Shown: positions 1,669-42,412 of the stretch, piece after piece | How positions within the stretch are numbered: the stretch's first letter is position 1 | Layout of the letters: every line of letters starts with the position of its first letter | Program-made: the position numbers and the translations under genes | The notes under the pieces: model-generated | Database searches by the model: none | What the model was told of the DNA's origin: nothing | What the model saw: the letters and a program-made list of their open reading frames with translations, nothing else | DNA from: a virus | Lineage: Duplodnaviria > Heunggongvirae > Uroviricota > Caudoviricetes | IMG/VR virus record: IMGVR_UViG_2563366824_000005 | Span: 1 to 43,437 of that record | Strand: one strand, 5' to 3' | DNA: 43,437 nucleotides

Positions 1669-4040
1669 TAGATTGACTCCCCCACCTGAGCATCAGTCAA
1701 TGCCTTGTGCCATATTCTGAAATTCCTGACATGACCAAATAAATGACGTAACCCGGCTGTAGTCTGGCCTCCAATACGGATAATTGCGGTGTTCTGAATA
1801 CAGGACCATGTGGTTTTTGTTTCGCTGGATATATGCCCGTTACTTACTGAGCACGTAGACTGCTCTGACTTTACACGCATCCCCATAACCATTTTTTCAA
1901 GCGATGCGTTTTCGTTTACCCGTCTGTTAGCTCCTCCAATATCGCAATAAGGAAATCCGTCGTAATCTGTTGAACGACCGAAGCCAAGAATAATAGCCGC
2001 TCCGGTTTGATGACCGCCGGTATCAAAAACACGTGGCGCTGCATTTGGCGTTTTATACCAGTTCTTATGTACCTCACAAAGAACCGTAAAAGGAAGATTA
2101 TAAAGATTATTCTTAATTGGAACTGTAACTATATCGCTTGCGCGGGTCGCCGCCGTCGCTCCTGATATAATAAAAGATGATACACAAGGCCCATCTTCTA
2201 CTTGTGGGGTGGCCAGATAAATATAGTCACCAGATACGGTTGCCCCGCTCTGCTTAGGAGAATACTGTATCTGAGAGCCTATTTTAAACTCCCCATCAAT
2301 TGCCTGAATTGTTGCCTCTGCAAAAATCCATCCGGTAGCTTCGTCCTTTCTGACTCTCGCTGTAATTCTTGAGGCAGCACCGCCTGTCATATTAATTTCA
2401 AGCGTTTGTGTATCAATATACGCATCACCAAGAAAAGTTGTTGCGCTACCGTCATATTTATCAAACCGGATACGCAACCTTACCTGCAGTTCTGTTTTAA
2501 AACGACATGAGGTTGTCACGTGTTTATTATCGCCTGAGACATCAACTGACTTTGTTGCAGCAATTGATGCCATATTAATGGCTGAGGTTTGCCCAATCAG
2601 AGAATCGTTGCAGACAAACTTTCCATAGGTAAAACCAAAATTATCCGTCCCTGTTTCGGGCACATCCATATTTGACGATCGCCCCCAACTGGCAGGGCTT
2701 TCCGAATTGAGCATGTAGTTTGTTCTTTGCCCCTCAATAAGCAGGCCATCACGTTCAAATCGTGGCTCGTCAATGGCAGCCTCTGTCAGCACACCAGATT
2801 TGTTAATATAGGTTGCTTTCGATGCACGTTTAAACTTAACAATCTTGTCGCCAGGCATCGTTATTTCATCGTCACCAATAACAATTTTTTTATATGACGG
2901 CGAAAAGCCCGTAATCATATCCAGTGAATCGTTAAACGGTATCCACACATCAGGCAGTGGCTGTAAGACATATTTATACGGCTCTGCTGCCTGACTTGCA
3001 TACTCTCTGGCTGCGTCTTCACTTGCTTTAGCTGCTGTCTGGCTTGCTGCCGATGCTTTCGCCGAGTTCGCCGCTGCAGTCTCGCTTGTCTTTGCATTGG
3101 TTTCACTGGTTTTTGCCGCTTTTTGACTGTTGGCTGATGCAGTGGCAGAAGCAGCCGCCGCGCTTGCAGAACCAGCTGCCGCGCTCTCGCTTTGGGCTGC
3201 TGCAACCTGGCTGTTTTTCGCCGCAGTTTCGCTGGCTTTGGCATTCGTTTCGCTGGTCTTCGCTGCCGTCTGGCTGGACTTTGCGTTAGTTTCACTCGTC
3301 TTCGCTGCTTTCTGGCTGTTAGCCGCAGCAGTTGCTGCTCCAGCTGCTGAAGTCGCAGAACCGGCTGCTGCGCTCTCGCTCTCAGCTGCTGCAGTCTGGC
3401 TGTTTTTCGCCGCAGTTTCACTGGCTTTGGCATTCGTTTCGCTGGCCTTCGCTGCCGTCTGGCTGGACTTTGCGTTGGTTTCGCTCGTCTTTGCGGCTGT
3501 CTCGCTATTTTTCGCGTTGGTTTCTGATTTTTTAGCTGCTGTCGCGGAATTTGCCGATGCAGTCTGCGAGGCCGCTGCCGCCTGTGCGCTGTTAGCTGCA
3601 TTCGTTTCTGAGTTTTTCGCCGCGTTCTTCGATGATGCCGCTGCAGTTTCGGATTTCTTTGCCGCCGCTGCGCTCTGAGAGGCGGCTTCAGAGTTGCGTG
3701 CCGCTTCTTCCACCATTACCTCAAAACGACGCAATGCCTCCGGCATGACATCCTCTTCCGTCATGGCACCGAGAAAATCATTCAGCGTGCCTGGTCTGGA
3801 ACCTTCATAGACGGTAATGGTCCCGGCATGTGAAGGCGGAAAACCTTCAACCAGCAGGGTGACGCTGTACTGGCCATACTCAACATCCATGCTGTAACGC
3901 CCGGCTTCATCCGGATTTTCAGAGGCCACCGTATTCACCAGTACCGTGGTGCTGTTACGCTTTGCTTTGAGCTGAATAGTGCAGTTCTGTATTGGTTTTC
4001 CTGCACCGTCTTTCAGCACGCCTGAAATCTGTACTGCCAT
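1668..4040 (-). CDS. stf: side tail fibre protein (Stf-like) with Ser/Ala/Thr-rich repeat region and lectin-like C-terminal domain
   Basis: N-terminus MAVQISGVLKDGAGKPIQNCTIQLKA... matches lambda/K-12 Stf N-terminal domain; start taken at third Met of track ORF; C-terminus ends ...FGHVRNFRIWHKALTDAQV (LamG/concanavalin-like pattern). Confidence 0.8.
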   Translation of the reverse strand: MAVQISGVLKDGAGKPIQNCTIQLKAKRNSTTVLVNTVASENPDEAGRYSMDVEYGQYSVTLLVEGFPPSHAGTITVYEGSRPGTLNDFLGAMTEEDVMPEALRRFEVMVEEAARNSEAASQSAAAAKKSETAAASSKNAAKNSETNAANSAQAAAASQTASANSATAAKKSETNAKNSETAAKTSETNAKSSQTAAKASETNAKASETAAKNSQTAAAESESAAAGSATSAAGAATAAANSQKAAKTSETNAKSSQTAAKTSETNAKASETAAKNSQVAAAQSESAAAGSASAAAASATASANSQKAAKTSETNAKTSETAAANSAKASAASQTAAKASEDAAREYASQAAEPYKYVLQPLPDVWIPFNDSLDMITGFSPSYKKIVIGDDEITMPGDKIVKFKRASKATYINKSGVLTEAAIDEPRFERDGLLIEGQRTNYMLNSESPASWGRSSNMDVPETGTDNFGFTYGKFVCNDSLIGQTSAINMASIAATKSVDVSGDNKHVTTSCRFKTELQVRLRIRFDKYDGSATTFLGDAYIDTQTLEINMTGGAASRITARVRKDEATGWIFAEATIQAIDGEFKIGSQIQYSPKQSGATVSGDYIYLATPQVEDGPCVSSFIISGATAATRASDIVTVPIKNNLYNLPFTVLCEVHKNWYKTPNAAPRVFDTGGHQTGAAIILGFGRSTDYDGFPYCDIGGANRRVNENASLEKMVMGMRVKSEQSTCSVSNGHISSETKTTWSCIQNTAIIRIGGQTTAGLRHLFGHVRNFRIWHKALTDAQVGESI
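3000..3700. repeat. tandem repeats of about 189 bp inside stf, encoding AAKTSETNAK-type repeats
   Basis: motif ctgtttttcgccgcagtttc recurs at 3211 and 3400 (189 bp apart) with flanking near-identical sequence; more diverged copies on either side. Confidence 0.7.
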
Positions 4041-12499: not shown

Positions 12500-14131
<1,632 letters not shown>

Positions 14132-25465: not shown

Positions 25466-25930
25466 TTATCTGAGGCATTGCTCTCGAATGTATAGCTGTG
25501 CCCCTTCAAGTTGTTTTTGCATTATTATCAGTCGCGCTCTGAGGGTGAAATAATCCCGTTCAGCGGTGTCTGCCAGTCGGGGGGAGGCTGCATTATCCAC
25601 GCCGGAGGCGGTGGTGGCTTCACGCACTGACTGACAGACTGCTTTGATGTGCAACCGACGACGACCAGCGGCAACATCATCACGCAGAGCATCATTTTCA
25701 GCTTTCGCATCAGCTAACTCCTTCGTGTATTTTGCATCGAGCGCAGCAACATCACGCTGACGCATCTGCATGTCAGTAATTGCCGCGTTCGCCAGCTTCA
25801 GTTCTCTGACATTTTTGTCGCGCTGGGCTTTGTAGGTAATGGCGTTATCACGGTAATGATTCAGCCCCAGACTAAGCGCACCACAGGCCACCAGCAGGGC
25901 AATGATGACCACGCACAGTACGCGGTTCAT
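25466..25930 (-). CDS. Rz: i-spanin Rz
   Basis: 154 aa with N-terminal TM segment and coiled-coil; lambda Rz-like. Confidence 0.8.
25528..25710 (-). CDS. Rz1: o-spanin Rz1 lipoprotein, embedded in Rz in +1 frame
   Basis: 60 aa with lipobox LVVVGC and PPPPP tract; near-identical to lambda Rz1 as recalled. Confidence 0.75.
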
Positions 25931-25931
25931 T

Positions 25932-26069
25932 TCACCACCAGCGTATCTGACCGATGAAATAACCAGAGGCCATAATCACAAACACCAGCCAGATAAGAAT
26001 GAACTTCCAGGTGGATAATTTTTCAGCCATCACTCGAATCTCCCGAATCAGTTTGCTAAAATCAAACAC
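25932..26069 (-). CDS. candidate small membrane protein (45 aa, GTG start) immediately upstream of Rz
   Basis: AAGGAG SD 5 nt before GTG at 26069; in-frame ATG at 26030 gives 32 aa; C-terminal hydrophobic helix [20 protein letters not shown]; stop overlaps Rz start (TGAAATG); below track length cut-off. Confidence 0.3.
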
Positions 26070-26105
26070 ACTTTCTCCTTTGACTTTTCCGGAGTCAGGA
26101 AACAC

Positions 26106-26139
26106 AAAACCCCGCTTGGTGCCAACAAACGGGGTTTTT
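26106..26139 (-). terminator. hairpin with U-run between endolysin and Rz (possible terminator or attenuator)
   Basis: minus strand CCCCG..TTGG/CCAA..CGGGG stem followed by TTTTGTGTTT. Confidence 0.35.
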
Positions 26140-26228
26140 ACTTTTATTCACTTACGTTTCGCCACTTCGCAGGATTTCATGTTATCCGCCCGCGTGGCCA
26201 TGCCTTATTTTTCAGCAAAATATTCTGC

Positions 26229-26762
26229 TTATCTGTCGATACCCCAGCACGCCAGCGCGCTCTCCTGGTCACGACGGGATACCTGACCGTAGCAGTTGTT
26301 TGAACGAATACGGCAGTCTCTGCCACCGTCCTTAATCCACCAGCGAATCGCCTCACACGCTCCCCTGCGATCACCTGCATTAATTCGTTTATAAAACGTC
26401 GACGGGAAACACTTACCGGGACCAATGTTGTACGGACAGAATGACGCGATCCCCGCTTTCTGGGGTTCGCTCAATGGCACTTTGATGTTTTTCTCCACCC
26501 ATGCCAGCGCCTTATCACGCTCAATGGCGTTGACCTGGTCGCATTTTTCCTTCGACAGTTTCATACCGGGAAAAACGGGTTTTCCATCCACCATCGTGGC
26601 CCCCCGACAGATGGTCCAGTTGCCGGAACCATCGCGGTATGCCGTAGTGTGGTTACCCTCTTTTTCATCCAGAAACTGGTCAAGTATCTGAGGAGCTGAT
26701 GCGCCTGCTCCAATCAGCGCCAGAACTGCAGCTGACAGGCCGTATTTGATTTTTGCGTTCAT
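26229..26762 (-). CDS. SAR endolysin (GH24 T4-type lysozyme with N-terminal signal-anchor-release domain)
   Basis: 177 aa; Gly/Ala-rich weakly hydrophobic N-terminus; catalytic spacing E-x8-D-x5-T in ...EKEGNHTTAYRDGSGNWTI... Confidence 0.85.
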   Translation of the reverse strand: MNAKIKYGLSAAVLALIGAGASAPQILDQFLDEKEGNHTTAYRDGSGNWTICRGATMVDGKPVFPGMKLSKEKCDQVNAIERDKALAWVEKNIKVPLSEPQKAGIASFCPYNIGPGKCFPSTFYKRINAGDRRGACEAIRWWIKDGGRDCRIRSNNCYGQVSRRDQESALACWGIDR

Positions 26763-26867: not shown

Positions 26868-27140
26868 ATGGACAATAGCACCATTTCTCTACAGGAGTTG
26901 CTCGACTGCATTTCCAGGCTTCGGGATGATGTAAATGCCCTCACTGTTGCATTTTCACATCTGGCCTTATCAATTCCCAGGGAGCAAATGCTGCCAACGC
27001 TGGCATCCATTCATTTTGAATCACGCAACCCCAAATGGTCCCAGGAACAACAAAATTCTTTCAAGTGGCTGGCGGCATTGCTGGAAGAAAATTATGCTGG
27101 CAAAACTACCATTTCGGCGGAGTCTTCAGGGAACCAGTAA
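26868..27140 (+). CDS. hypothetical protein on the strand opposite the lysis genes, convergent with the ydfR-like gene
   Basis: 90 aa ORF; AAGAGGA SD about 7 nt upstream of ATG; 3' end overlaps ydfR-like gene by 35 bp; no recognised family. Confidence 0.4.
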   Translation: MDNSTISLQELLDCISRLRDDVNALTVAFSHLALSIPREQMLPTLASIHFESRNPKWSQEQQNSFKWLAALLEENYAGKTTISAESSGNQ

Positions 27141-28762: not shown

Positions 28763-28796
28763 GGAGTTTACTCACATCTGACAAAATCAATATAAA

Positions 28797-28818
28797 CAGC
28801 CCCTCCGGAGAGGGGCTG
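28797..28818. terminator. strong 9-bp GC hairpin (CAGCCCCTC-CGGA-GAGGGGCTG)
   Basis: perfect inverted repeat; U-rich tract on the minus-strand side only. Confidence 0.45.
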
Positions 28819-29209
28819 GAGAGTGGCGCTATGTGCCATTGCATGGTGCCGGGTGCCTCCCGGTGAATTCAGTACCAGCACCTGAATCCGCGATTATCCC
28901 ATATACCTACTCGCTGATTGCCCCTCCGCACAGGGGGATTCACCATGCCAGTTTCTTTTAACAAACTCCCCGCAAACCAGACAACAGTCAACCGCCTGAA
29001 TTGTGAAGTATTTAAAAATTTCTCCCGCTAACTGATACCCGGCTAACAGTCTGGCGTTTTCTTTTTCAGCAACGGGAAAGCAACAACCACCACACCCGCC
29101 ACCAGCACACCGTCAGCCAGCACTGACATTATCCGGCTGCTGCAATGCCATTCACAAAAACAGTAAGCAATCACTTTTTACCGTAACAGGTGATAATCCA
29201 GATATGTAT

Positions 29210-29673: not shown

Positions 29674-29750
29674 TGGCGCGCTGTACTGGATTCGAACCAG
29701 TGACCGATTGCTTAGAAGGCAATTGCTCTGTCCGGCTGAGCTAACAACGC
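29674..29750 (-). tRNA. tRNA-Arg (anticodon UCU)
   Basis: 77-nt cloverleaf GCGTTGTTAGCTCAGCCGGACAGAGCAATTGCCTTCTAAGCAATCGGTCACTGGTTCGAATCCAGTACAGCGCGCCA with encoded CCA. Confidence 0.85.
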
Positions 29751-29856: not shown

Positions 29857-29932
29857 TGGTGGCCCTTGCTGGATTTGAACCAGCGACCTGGCGATTATGA
29901 GTCGCTCGCTCTCACCACTGAGCTAAAGGACC
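29857..29932 (-). tRNA. tRNA-Ile2 (anticodon CAU, ileX/ileZ-like; would be called tRNA-Met by anticodon alone)
   Basis: 76-nt cloverleaf GGTCCTTTAGCTCAGTGGTGAGAGCGAGCGACTCATAATCGCCAGGTCGCTGGTTCAAATCCAGCAAGGGCCACCA, resembles E. coli ileX. Confidence 0.8.
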
Positions 29933-33068: not shown

Positions 33069-33224
33069 TTACTCCTCAGGTTCGTAAACTGTGAAGACAG
33101 CGACCTCCGTCTGGCCGGTTCGGATTCGTACCTCGCAGAGGTCTTTCCTCGTTACCAGTGCCGTCACTATGACGGTTAAACAGATGACGATCAGGGCGAT
33201 TAACATCGCCTTTTGCTGCTTCAT
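33069..33224 (-). CDS. hokD: Hok-family type I toxin (HokD/RelF-like)
   Basis: 51 aa MKQQKAMLIALIVICLTVIVTALVTRKDLCEVRIRTGQTEVAVFTAYEPEE; AAGGAG SD; below track length cut-off. Confidence 0.85.
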   Translation of the reverse strand: MKQQKAMLIALIVICLTVIVTALVTRKDLCEVRIRTGQTEVAVFTVYEPEE

Positions 33225-33481
33225 AGCCTGCTTCTCCTTGACCTTTCGGTCCGTAAGAGGCTAATCTCTATGTGTCGCATAGATATGGCCTCAGATTAAT
33301 GTTAAACGTCTTGCAGGACGCGTAATGTTACCTGGGGCTTTTCTCTATCTGCCGTTGGTGTTCATGCCCGAGGCAGATAGCCTCAAGCACCCGCAGTCAT
33401 TCTACTTAACTAAGATTTCCCCGCAAACCGTTTTTGTCCAGCACAATAAATATCCAACTAAACCAATGGAGTTCGCTGTAT

Positions 33482-39011: not shown

Positions 39012-39069
39012 TTTCTGGTGACGTTTGGCGGTATCAGTTTTACTCCGTGACTGCTCTGCCGCCCTTTTT
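39012..39069 (+). ncRNA. dicF: DicF small regulatory RNA with its terminator
   Basis: TTTCTGGTGACGTTTGGCGGTATCAGTTTTACTCCGTGACTGCTCTGCCGCCC followed by TTTTT matches K-12 DicF as recalled. Confidence 0.8.
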
Positions 39070-42208: not shown

Positions 42209-42412
42209 ATGAGCAGCTTATTTTTAACCGAAGATGAATTGCTAATATTAACGGGCTGCAAATATGCAAGCCACCAGCGAAAATGGTTAATGGAAAACGG
42301 GCTTCCGTTCTATACCAATCGTAGTGGCAAACCGATTGTCAGCCGGGATCTATTTACCTGCAATAAAACTTTACCACCACGCGAGGTAGAGCCGAATTTT
42401 GGTGCGATCTGA
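42209..42412 (+). CDS. xis: excisionase-like protein (Xis)
   Basis: 67 aa directly upstream of and overlapping int by 1 nt (TGATG). Confidence 0.55.
   Translation: MSSLFLTEDELLILTGCKYASHQRKWLMENGLPFYTNRSGKPIVSRDLFTCNKTLPPREVEPNFGAI

Follow-up and report, generated by a model that had tools for sequence, protein, structure and literature searches.

A conserved small membrane-protein gene with a terminator-like hairpin and a predicted antisense promoter between the endolysin and spanin genes of a Caudoviricetes virus

INTRODUCTION

In the SymE-SymR system of Escherichia coli, an antisense promoter lies inside the 5' coding region of the target gene, and the RNA made from it, ~77 nucleotides (nt) long, covers the start codon and the Shine-Dalgarno (SD) sequence. 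Phage P22 uses a cis-antisense RNA of ~69 nt, sar, whose transcription converges within its operon and which base-pairs at the ribosome-binding site of ant, the gene downstream. Here we compare with these systems a locus in a 43,437-nt stretch of Caudoviricetes DNA (IMG/VR record IMGVR_UViG_2563366824_000005, the whole of which is called the window below). The locus is the spacer between the endolysin gene R and the i-spanin gene Rz, and it holds a gene for a 45-residue membrane protein, a hairpin upstream of that gene and a predicted promoter on the opposite strand of its first codons. With moderate confidence we read it as a three-part portable phage cassette, in which a late membrane peptide would be held off by a bidirectional terminator, a weak start and a cis-antisense RNA of ~76 nt. 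The cassette sits amid a textbook S-R-Rz lysis operon, yet it is unnamed and patchily annotated.

The likeness to SymE-SymR is one of layout: the predicted promoter of the window is also found in 5' codons, and a short cis-antisense RNA would run over the start and the SD. SymE, however, is a soluble RNase-like protein of 113 amino acids (aa), SOS-controlled and with its own promoter, whereas the target here is a 45-aa membrane helix in a phage late operon with no promoter of its own. In addition, the antisense RNA of the window would share a bidirectional terminator, which would shield the gene from transcription arriving from upstream as well. The target of sar is the immI-region antirepressor rather than a late membrane protein, and no sequence relationship exists. 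With the type I pairs Hok/Sok, Ldr/Rdl, Ibs/Sib, Zor/Orz and TisB/IstR the locus shares a small hydrophobic single-helix protein, a (predicted) antisense RNA over the initiation region, tandem duplication and a prophage location; it differs from them in having no sequence similarity (Pfam, NCBIfam, Rfam) and no long processed toxin mRNA with its own promoter.

Alternative starts give two products in phage lambda (S107 and S105). The type I system sprG1/SprF1 of a Staphylococcus aureus prophage makes membrane peptides of 31 and 44 aa from one gene by alternative starts (PMC10579593), which parallels the 45- and 32-aa forms that may be made in the window. The sprG1/SprF1 system differs in its Gram-positive host, its unrelated family and an antisense RNA that overlaps the 3' end. 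The releasin gp25 (DUF2730) of phage Mu is a small protein with a single transmembrane (TM) domain, encoded near an endolysin of the signal-anchor-release (SAR) type and near spanins, that modulates lysis and is not a holin; it has 99 aa, an N-out/C-in topology and an acidic cytoplasmic domain of 73 aa (PMC9239132). The peptide of the window, by contrast, has 45 aa, a C-terminal anchor and a basic N-terminal helix, and gives no DUF2730 match. It differs from holins in giving no holin match in Pfam or PHROG and in having a single TM domain with just 3 residues beyond it, and the cassette already has a P21-type holin (PF04971). Unlike a spanin it has no periplasmic domain, Cys or lipobox, and Rz/Rz1 are the next genes.

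Classical morons such as HK97 gp15 have a promoter, ORF, terminator layout (ORF, open reading frame) and are expressed from the prophage. The locus resembles them as an extra small inner-membrane gene between conserved late genes, in a slot that is empty in the K-12 prophage Qin and holds alternative inserts in the Sakai prophages Sp4, Sp12 and Sp15. In contrast to a moron, its terminator is upstream of the ORF, there is no conserved sense promoter, the sole conserved promoter, a predicted one, faces the opposite way and the ORF runs into Rz.

THE GENE AND ITS PRODUCT

The coding features of the cassette are as follows.

25932..26069, minus strand: gene for a 45-aa tail-anchored membrane protein of the PHROG 6632 family (GTG start 26069-26067, stop TGA 25934-25932)
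26075..26080, minus strand: SD sequence AAGGAG, 5-nt gap to the GTG
25932..26030, minus strand: possible second product, a 32-aa form from an internal ATG (M14, 26030-26028), with (C/A)GG-GAG 9 nt upstream

A sequence-only reading of this DNA had picked out a 45-codon GTG ORF with an AAGGAG SD and a C-terminal TM helix. Both are borne out: the hydrophobic stretch comprises residues 23-42 of 45, and AlphaFold2 predicts a single continuous helix from residue 4 to 44 (pLDDT 87). The peptide is net positive at its N-terminus and only R-W-W follows the hydrophobic segment; this charge distribution suggests a tail-anchored inner-membrane protein with N-in, C-out topology.

The protein matches the PHROG 6632 profile (45 positions, function unassigned) over residues 1-45 with E = 1.2e-29. 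Divergent homologues match the same profile at 6e-20 to 6e-24, and shortened forms match it too. The peptide gives no family above noise in Pfam or NCBIfam and none in PADLOC, and no paper found in a literature search carries its sequence, its accession or the PHROG id. The sequence-only reading had called the ORF unannotated. That is so for some records, including some identical genomes and the H-19B entry AF034975, but the identical ORF is already in RefSeq NZ_CP033092.2 as hypothetical protein WP_000459345.1, a longer version is annotated in LC567829, and PHROG 6632 catalogues the family.

The frame is conserved in homologues, and selection on it can be read in several ways. For twelve divergent sequences compared pairwise with the window, the ratio of nonsynonymous to synonymous substitution rates (dN/dS) is 0.09-0.31, at dS values of 0.5-2 that are mostly >1. 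The corresponding ratio of observed differences per site (pN/pS), summed, is 0.32 in the ORF frame vs 0.74 and 1.77 in the other two frames. Codons 2-13, with pN/pS 0.39, show constraint on the protein there as well, and in the TM segment synonymous sites are saturated (pS 0.78) while pN/pS is again 0.39. Because purifying selection is thus specific to the frame, by dN/dS as well as pN/pS, the ORF is a genuine conserved gene.

One could instead suppose that the ORF is untranslated and that the conserved unit is a non-coding RNA or terminator element only, given that many annotation pipelines skip the ORF and that its 5' part is conserved at the nucleotide level. We regard this as highly improbable. 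The selection just described runs along the whole ORF, TM segment included; the frame stays open across genera, with conservative hydrophobic replacements; and the SD is strong and ideally spaced.

A further feature of the gene is Met14, which is invariant in all homologues and has a conserved (C/A)GG-GAG upstream of it. The Serratia copy (L014) starts at this Met, without the N-terminal extension, and natural 32-aa forms are present in database calls. The internal start hints that there may be two products, of 45 and 32 aa.

HAIRPIN AND LEADER

Between the lysozyme stop and the gene are two structured elements.

26106..26138, both strands: GC-rich hairpin with an A-tract (26135-26139 region, ORF strand) and T-runs on both strands (terminator scan, inverted repeat)
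26081..26097, minus strand: small stem-loop SL2, TGACT-ccggaaa-AGTCA, abutting the SD; its complement is the 5' stem-loop of the predicted antisense RNA

The hairpin with a U-run that the sequence-only reading had noticed in the R-Rz spacer is present. It reads AAAACCCCG-(15 nt)-CGGGGTTTT at 26138-26106 on the minus strand, followed by GTGTTTCC, and the terminator scan gives it 13 pairs; the spacer as a whole is 298 nt. Termination is predicted from the sequence in both directions, as the minus-strand stem is followed by TTTTGTGTTT and the plus-strand core by TTTTTACTTTT. That reading had listed it as a terminator-like hairpin beside the ORF. It does not stand apart as an intergenic terminator: it belongs to the same portable unit as the ORF and is conserved with it in every context.

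Full-length copies are all alike: A-tract, GC stem, T-run, 34-39 nt to the start, a small stem and a GGAG-type SD, the last kept in all homologous leaders. The hairpin lies at this distance upstream of a non-ATG start in 60+ unique copies, irrespective of genus or neighbours. The start codon is GTG, or TTG in Edwardsiella and Pseudomonas phages, and ATG is found in a few remote members only. The first bases of the stem are where homology with the spacer of Sakai Sp15 breaks off, which places the left border of the unit at the hairpin. Hairpin, leader and ORF are inherited as one portable unit across contexts.

A covariance model of the leader was built and 35 copies were realigned to it, so the alignment on which the following values rest is fitted to the model. 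In the terminator stem, 95.8% of cells are paired and 10 of 13 pairs have double changes. The covariation score for the whole structure is 0.364 vs 0.133 in shuffles (0/500 reach it), with slid controls at <=0.094. The hairpin is a selected RNA structure. For SL2, 73% of cells in the covariance alignment are paired and all five pairs have double changes; the stems differ among homologues (CCTTG/CAAGG, CGTTA/TAACG, CATG/CATG, TCCCTA/TAGGGG). In an alignment-free check, a stem of >=5 bp is found in 22 of 26 unique leaders vs 34% of shuffles, with competing pairings present. Support for SL2 as a conserved stem-loop is moderate. The same model finds no second cassette in the window.

The two strands of the hairpin are not equivalent. 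Of 37 unique hairpins, 34 are more stable in the sense strand, and G-U pairs number 72 on the ORF strand vs 28 on the other. Since G-U pairs concentrate on the ORF strand, it is the sense-strand RNA structure that is under selection, and this asymmetry rejects the hairpin as purely a terminator for an antisense RNA. The GC core of 9-10 bp and the flanking A/T tracts are nevertheless intact in both directions, and a bidirectional model was adopted. Its simplest reading is a terminator that would stop un-antiterminated transcription arriving from R and would also end the antisense RNA.

Two other ideas about the leader were set aside. A long-range pairing of the U-tract after the hairpin with codons 8-11, seen in a fold of the window, is not recovered by RNAalifold on homologues. 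The notion that loss of the hairpin always goes with loss of the promoter holds only in part: copies without the N-terminal extension (L014, L126) also have neither a hairpin directly upstream nor the antisense promoter, but L016 has a leader copy 400 nt upstream of a truncated ORF, and in the Sakai Sp4 variant the hairpin persists beside another antisense promoter.

A PREDICTED ANTISENSE PROMOTER IN THE CODONS

The strongest signal at the locus escaped the sequence-only reading. It is on the strand opposite the gene.

26034..26062, plus strand: predicted sigma-70 promoter in codons 3-12 (-35 TCGAAT 26034-26039, 17-nt spacer, extended -10 TG 26054-26055, TAAAAT 26057-26062)
26068..26143, plus strand: predicted cis-antisense RNA of ~76 nt, ends approximate, placed from promoter and terminator geometry

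The extended -10 motif, TGCTAAAAT at 26054-26062 (plus strand), is aimed at the hairpin. Synonymous sites are much less variable where the promoter lies: pS is 0.33 in codons 2-13 vs 0.77 in codons 14-45. Individual codons are frozen, with D3 as GAT, codon 4 as NTT, the six-fold degenerate S5 as AGC and R12 as CGA, whereas R43 varies over five codons. Read on the opposite strand, codons 3-6 give TTTGC-TAAAAT-C, and exactly 17 nt upstream codons 11-12 give TCGAAT or TCGCAA.

In a first count, TGC-TAA(A/T/G)AT was present in 34 of 36 sequences; the looser TGnTAnnnT is kept in all full-length lineages, even with differing amino acids. TG, T1, A2 and T6 are invariant across lineages, while positions 3-5 of the hexamer and the 'n' vary, and the -10 forms observed are TAAAAT, TAATAT, TAAGAT, TAGAAT and TAAGCT. 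Conservation of T1, A2 and T6 with a free middle is the pattern expected of a sigma-70 -10 element.

Three observations help to separate constraint on the DNA from constraint on the protein. In the copy L174, N-S-S-K replaces D-F-S-K and the motif is still TGCTAGAAT. Where residue 5 is Ile, its codon must be ATC, because the G of TG comes from the third base and the middle one falls on the free 'n'; this advance prediction held in 3/3 remote members, giving TGATAAAAT, TGATAAACT and a perfect TGATATAAT. Finally, in sister cassettes with non-homologous ORFs, antisense -10 hexamers (5/6) end at ORF nucleotides 5-8 in five of seven types; at ordinary ORF starts preceded by an SD the background is 0.084 (binomial P ~7e-5). 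Because of these three results we argue that the constraint acts on the DNA, beyond what the protein requires.

The RNA from this promoter would start near 26068-26070 (plus strand), traverse the sequences complementary to start codon, SD and SL2, and finish with the hairpin and TTTTTACTTTT. It is predicted to fold into a 5' tail, a stem-loop and the terminator (z = -3.6). From the sequence, both the production of this antisense RNA and its repression of the ORF are inferred.

A promoter called by the scanner at 25947-25976 (plus strand) was rejected, as its -10 shows no conservation and coincides in part with the variable codons 32-33. At 42239-42248 (plus strand) the window has another exact match to TTGCTAANAT, making 2 vs 0.31 expected; it is probably due to chance. 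The only Rfam match at the site, sub-threshold and to the rimP leader, is due to terminator shape.

The same conservation can be viewed without an active antisense RNA. The locus would then be a plain late-gene moron, with an accessory membrane protein (for superinfection exclusion or an injection block), an ordinary terminator or mRNA 3'-end/stabiliser and a silent antisense promoter, and the nucleotide conservation would serve initiation at the weak GTG. Such a reading agrees with the selection on the sense-strand hairpin, with the typical positions between conserved late genes in a polymorphic slot, with the copies that adjoin baseplate and tail genes, and with the fact that neither Rfam nor the published O157 small RNA (sRNA) lists report an antisense RNA at this position. 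We consider it somewhat unlikely. A constraint on initiation favours A/U-rich codons, not the invariant C of AGC and ATC, nor T1, A2 and T6 with positions 3-5 free. The antisense -10 recurs in non-homologous N-termini, and the A-tract 5' of the stem, needless for a one-way terminator, is conserved. In addition, the ORF is without its own promoter, which an exclusion protein expressed in the lysogen would need.

PROPOSED MECHANISM

The reading we prefer remains the cassette with a repressing antisense RNA, and it can be put as a sequence of steps. In the lysogen, the hairpin would terminate un-antiterminated read-through from upstream, and the weak start codon (GTG or TTG) would limit synthesis of the peptide. 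A constitutive antisense RNA of ~76 nt would pair with the SD and start region, probably beginning as a loop-loop contact at SL2, and this pairing would block translation and/or trigger cleavage. On induction, Q-modified polymerase would pass the hairpin, late mRNA would exceed the antisense RNA, and the peptide would be produced alongside R and Rz.

Because the architecture resembles a type I toxin-antitoxin-like pair, the likeliest view is that the peptide acts on the membrane and would do harm if made early. Traits of that type are the small single-helix hydrophobic protein (<~60 aa), the tandem cassettes and one locus amid ParE, RelB-YafQ and HicB modules. Searches of Pfam, NCBIfam and PADLOC give no sequence match to known type I toxin families (Hok, Ldr, Ibs, TisB, ShoB, Zor, DinQ and others). 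We propose that the unit works like a type I system, and do not file it under any known family. As a role for the peptide we favour the tuning or triggering of late envelope events, for example lysis timing by perturbing the inner membrane. It could instead serve in superinfection exclusion or as a specific partner of lysis proteins.

Several results weigh against this mechanism. The -35 element is weak (3/6), and the promoter would rely on its extended -10. The N-terminal motif is conserved as protein too, which explains part of the nucleotide conservation, but not the synonymous pattern. Unlike in classical type I systems, a conserved promoter for the protein mRNA is lacking: the homology of the module sets in ~10 nt upstream of the hairpin, no space for a promoter exists between hairpin and SD, and a candidate upstream promoter is found only in the L174/L175 copies (in a 300-nt repeat). 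Selection acts on the sense-strand hairpin, so the hairpin is not solely an antisense terminator, and the antisense RNA keeps just its 9-10-bp core. No Rfam family is found at the site, with the region searched at a permissive threshold and the whole window at the gathering threshold. At the homologous site of Sakai Sp4, no Hfq-bound sRNA is found in Table S2, the EcOnc table or the Northern probes of Tree et al. 2014 (PMC4104026), and the Pas-sRNA preprint deals with other loci only. The Ribo-seq supplements for Sakai (Hücker et al. 2017) have no entry for the peptide, as expected for uninduced cells.

On a wider view we tentatively suggest a previously undescribed, widespread family of type I-like cassettes in late operons, gating a peptide for lysis timing or competitor exclusion, with Rz/Rz1 slaved to it in Stx-type phages. 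Catalogues already list the protein family as hypothetical; what appears to be undescribed is the cassette architecture, along with the predicted antisense promoter that overlaps the gene. If the antisense RNA is real, the cassettes would form a new family among type I toxin-antitoxin-like systems and offer a clear example of a promoter on one strand constraining codons on the other. They would also add a layer of post-transcriptional control to the spanin genes of Shiga-toxin phages, whose lysis releases the toxin.

DISTRIBUTION AND CONTEXT

Homologues are found in E. albertii, E. fergusonii and Salmonella, and, in a one-genome-per-species collection, in Citrobacter, Edwardsiella, Yersinia, Izhakiella, Sodalis, Brenneria, Symbiopectobacterium, Serratia, Providencia, Dryocola and Trabulsiella. 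Phages with homologues include the Salmonella phages SPN3UB and SEN34, phage Rac-SA53 and Pseudomonas phages (46% identity). The cassette is also in H-19B and many Stx1- and Stx2-converting phages. Among complete E. coli genomes, a full-length copy is present in ~16% (871/5,426) and some part in 38%. A profile search of 1.84 billion representative proteins returns 41 clusters only, all small. Their common pattern is S-K-[LI]-I-x-E-[LIV]-R-x-M-x(3)-L-x(2)-W-[KR]-F, with a hydrophobic stretch after it; many end in I-R-W-W. A scan of metagenome contigs gives zero confirmed relatives.

About 80 of ~118 distinct copies are located between an endolysin and an i-spanin gene, in a sample heavily biased to lambdoid prophages of E. 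coli and Salmonella. Another ~11 are between the genes of two baseplate proteins, the spike gpV and the wedge protein gpW (SEN34, Rac-SA53, Yersinia, Serratia, Dryocola). The remaining copies follow tail-fibre, tape-measure-like or gpK genes, or are in a ParE, RelB-YafQ, HicB toxin-antitoxin island. Endolysins of at least three families flank the cassette (R21-like lysozyme, GH108 with PG_binding_3, and one type of 138 aa); the spanins fall into two (PF03245 and DUF2514), and the holins are of P21 or lambda-S type.

In the window, the stop codon TGA (25934-25932) is followed by 1 base and then by the ATG of Rz (25930-25928). The sequence-only reading had the string right, TGAAATG, but not the overlap it saw there, as one base separates stop and start. 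The same stop-1 nt-ATG junction is kept in Citrobacter, SPN3UB and the Sakai Sp4 variant. Because Rz starts 1 nt after the ORF stop, its translation is probably coupled to the small ORF in the window and its relatives.

These contexts bear on the suggestion, made by the sequence-only reading, of an extra lysis-associated membrane protein. What stands is that a real, conserved small membrane gene adjoins Rz and that most copies are found in lysis cassettes. A strictly lysis-specific partnership with R or Rz is unlikely, because the unit also occurs outside lysis cassettes, at the gpV/gpW, tail-fibre, gpK and toxin-antitoxin positions. The preference for lysis cassettes is real, yet it is no proof of a lysis-specific function.

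In its full form the suggestion would make the protein a dedicated component (antiholin, releasin-like factor or spanin regulator) acting with the SAR endolysin, the pinholin or Rz/Rz1, and needed for Rz translation. We judge this unlikely. It accounts for the roughly two thirds of distinct copies between endolysin and i-spanin, subject to the sampling bias noted above, and for the Rz junction kept in several genera. It also accounts for the presence of two unrelated small TM ORFs (phrog_4493, phrog_4906) in the R-Rz slot directly before Rz. The window cassette is of the pinholin/SAR type, in which, as known from phage 21, membrane depolarisation controls endolysin release. Set against this, the family keeps company with unrelated endolysins, with both types of spanin and with lambda-S-type holins; about one third of copies are far from any lysis gene; and the protein has no similarity to the holin, spanin or DUF2730 releasin families.

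OTHER CASSETTES IN THE SAME SLOT

The R-Rz junction is a polymorphic slot, and in K-12 Qin, where it is empty, rrrQ and rzpQ are contiguous or overlapping. Sakai Sp12 and Sp15 were considered as carriers of the module and ruled out, since they have an antirepressor cassette there instead. Downstream of its antirepressor gene is a third unrelated small membrane protein of this slot, a 48-aa TM ORF that abuts Rz (phrog_4906; ECs_5741, ECs_5732).

L101 24749-25464, minus strand: antirepressor and 48-aa TM ORF insert, Sakai Sp15
L103 5112-5827, minus strand: the same type of insert, Sakai Sp12

In the Sakai Sp4 variant (L102 7615-7874, minus strand), a matching hairpin, SL2 and SD are followed by an 8-codon ORF and the 37-aa TM protein ECs_1094 (phrog_4493), which ends IRWW-TGA-T-ATG(Rz). 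Here the scanner calls a 10/12 antisense promoter, TGGACA-18-TATACT, at L102 7731-7760 (plus strand), directed toward the matching hairpin.

Tandem cassettes are found in L170, L174 and L176. The two in L174 (1098-2379) each follow a 300-nt direct repeat (97% identical) with a 10/12 sense promoter (1126-1154), and they sit in the ParE, RelB-YafQ, HicB toxin-antitoxin island; this is perhaps the sole context with its own promoter for the peptide mRNA. In L176 (403-670) and L170 (1097-1360), the leader element precedes other tail-anchored TM ORFs, of 60 aa and of 59 aa ending AIRWW, just upstream of a PHROG 6632 copy of that phage. The leader element is common to a wider set of small membrane-protein cassettes. 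In L176, a match to sRNA-Xcc1 (RF02221) above the gathering score (2630-2718, minus strand) adjoins a Bro-N gene downstream of the cassette.

NEIGHBOURING FEATURES IN THE WINDOW

The genes of the lysis cassette are on the minus strand, in the order holin, DUF1327/YdfR-like gene, lysozyme, spacer and Rz.

Inside ORF 27775-27455, minus strand: P21-type holin (Pfam PF04971)
27450-27106, minus strand: DUF1327/YdfR-like gene
26229..26762, minus strand: R21-like (rrrQ-type) phage lysozyme, the endolysin R, 177 intact codons (Pfam PF00959, E = 4e-24)
26139-26228, minus strand: conserved spacer of ~90 nt 3' of the lysozyme stop, common to Sakai Sp15, Sp4 and Salmonella phage SPN3UB
25466..25930, minus strand: Rz i-spanin gene (Pfam PF03245, E = 1e-52)
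25528-25710, minus strand: Rz1 o-spanin, embedded in Rz (Pfam PF06085, E = 5e-20)

The ~90-nt stretch after the lysozyme is kept in those three relatives regardless of the downstream insert. The lysozyme ORF is intact in the window; the RefSeq record of E. coli ATCC 11775 marks rrrQ as a pseudogene with a frameshift (NZ_CP033092.2, L001 1998-2532, feature of 535 nt). The opposite strand bears a 90-aa ORF (26868-27140, plus strand) that is placed between the lysozyme and YdfR-like genes and overlaps the 3' end of the latter; it is RefSeq hypothetical protein WP_001351274.1 and has no Pfam match.

Elsewhere in the window, two tRNA genes are found on the minus strand, tRNA-Arg(tct) at 29674-29750 and a tRNA with anticodon cat at 29857-29932. 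Rfam matches at gathering level are isrC (13567-13689, minus strand), STnc100 (28788-28977, minus strand), sok (33222-33392, minus strand) and DicF (39013-39064, plus strand), of which the sok match marks a type I module, hok/sok. Prophage-borne regulatory RNAs abound in the window.

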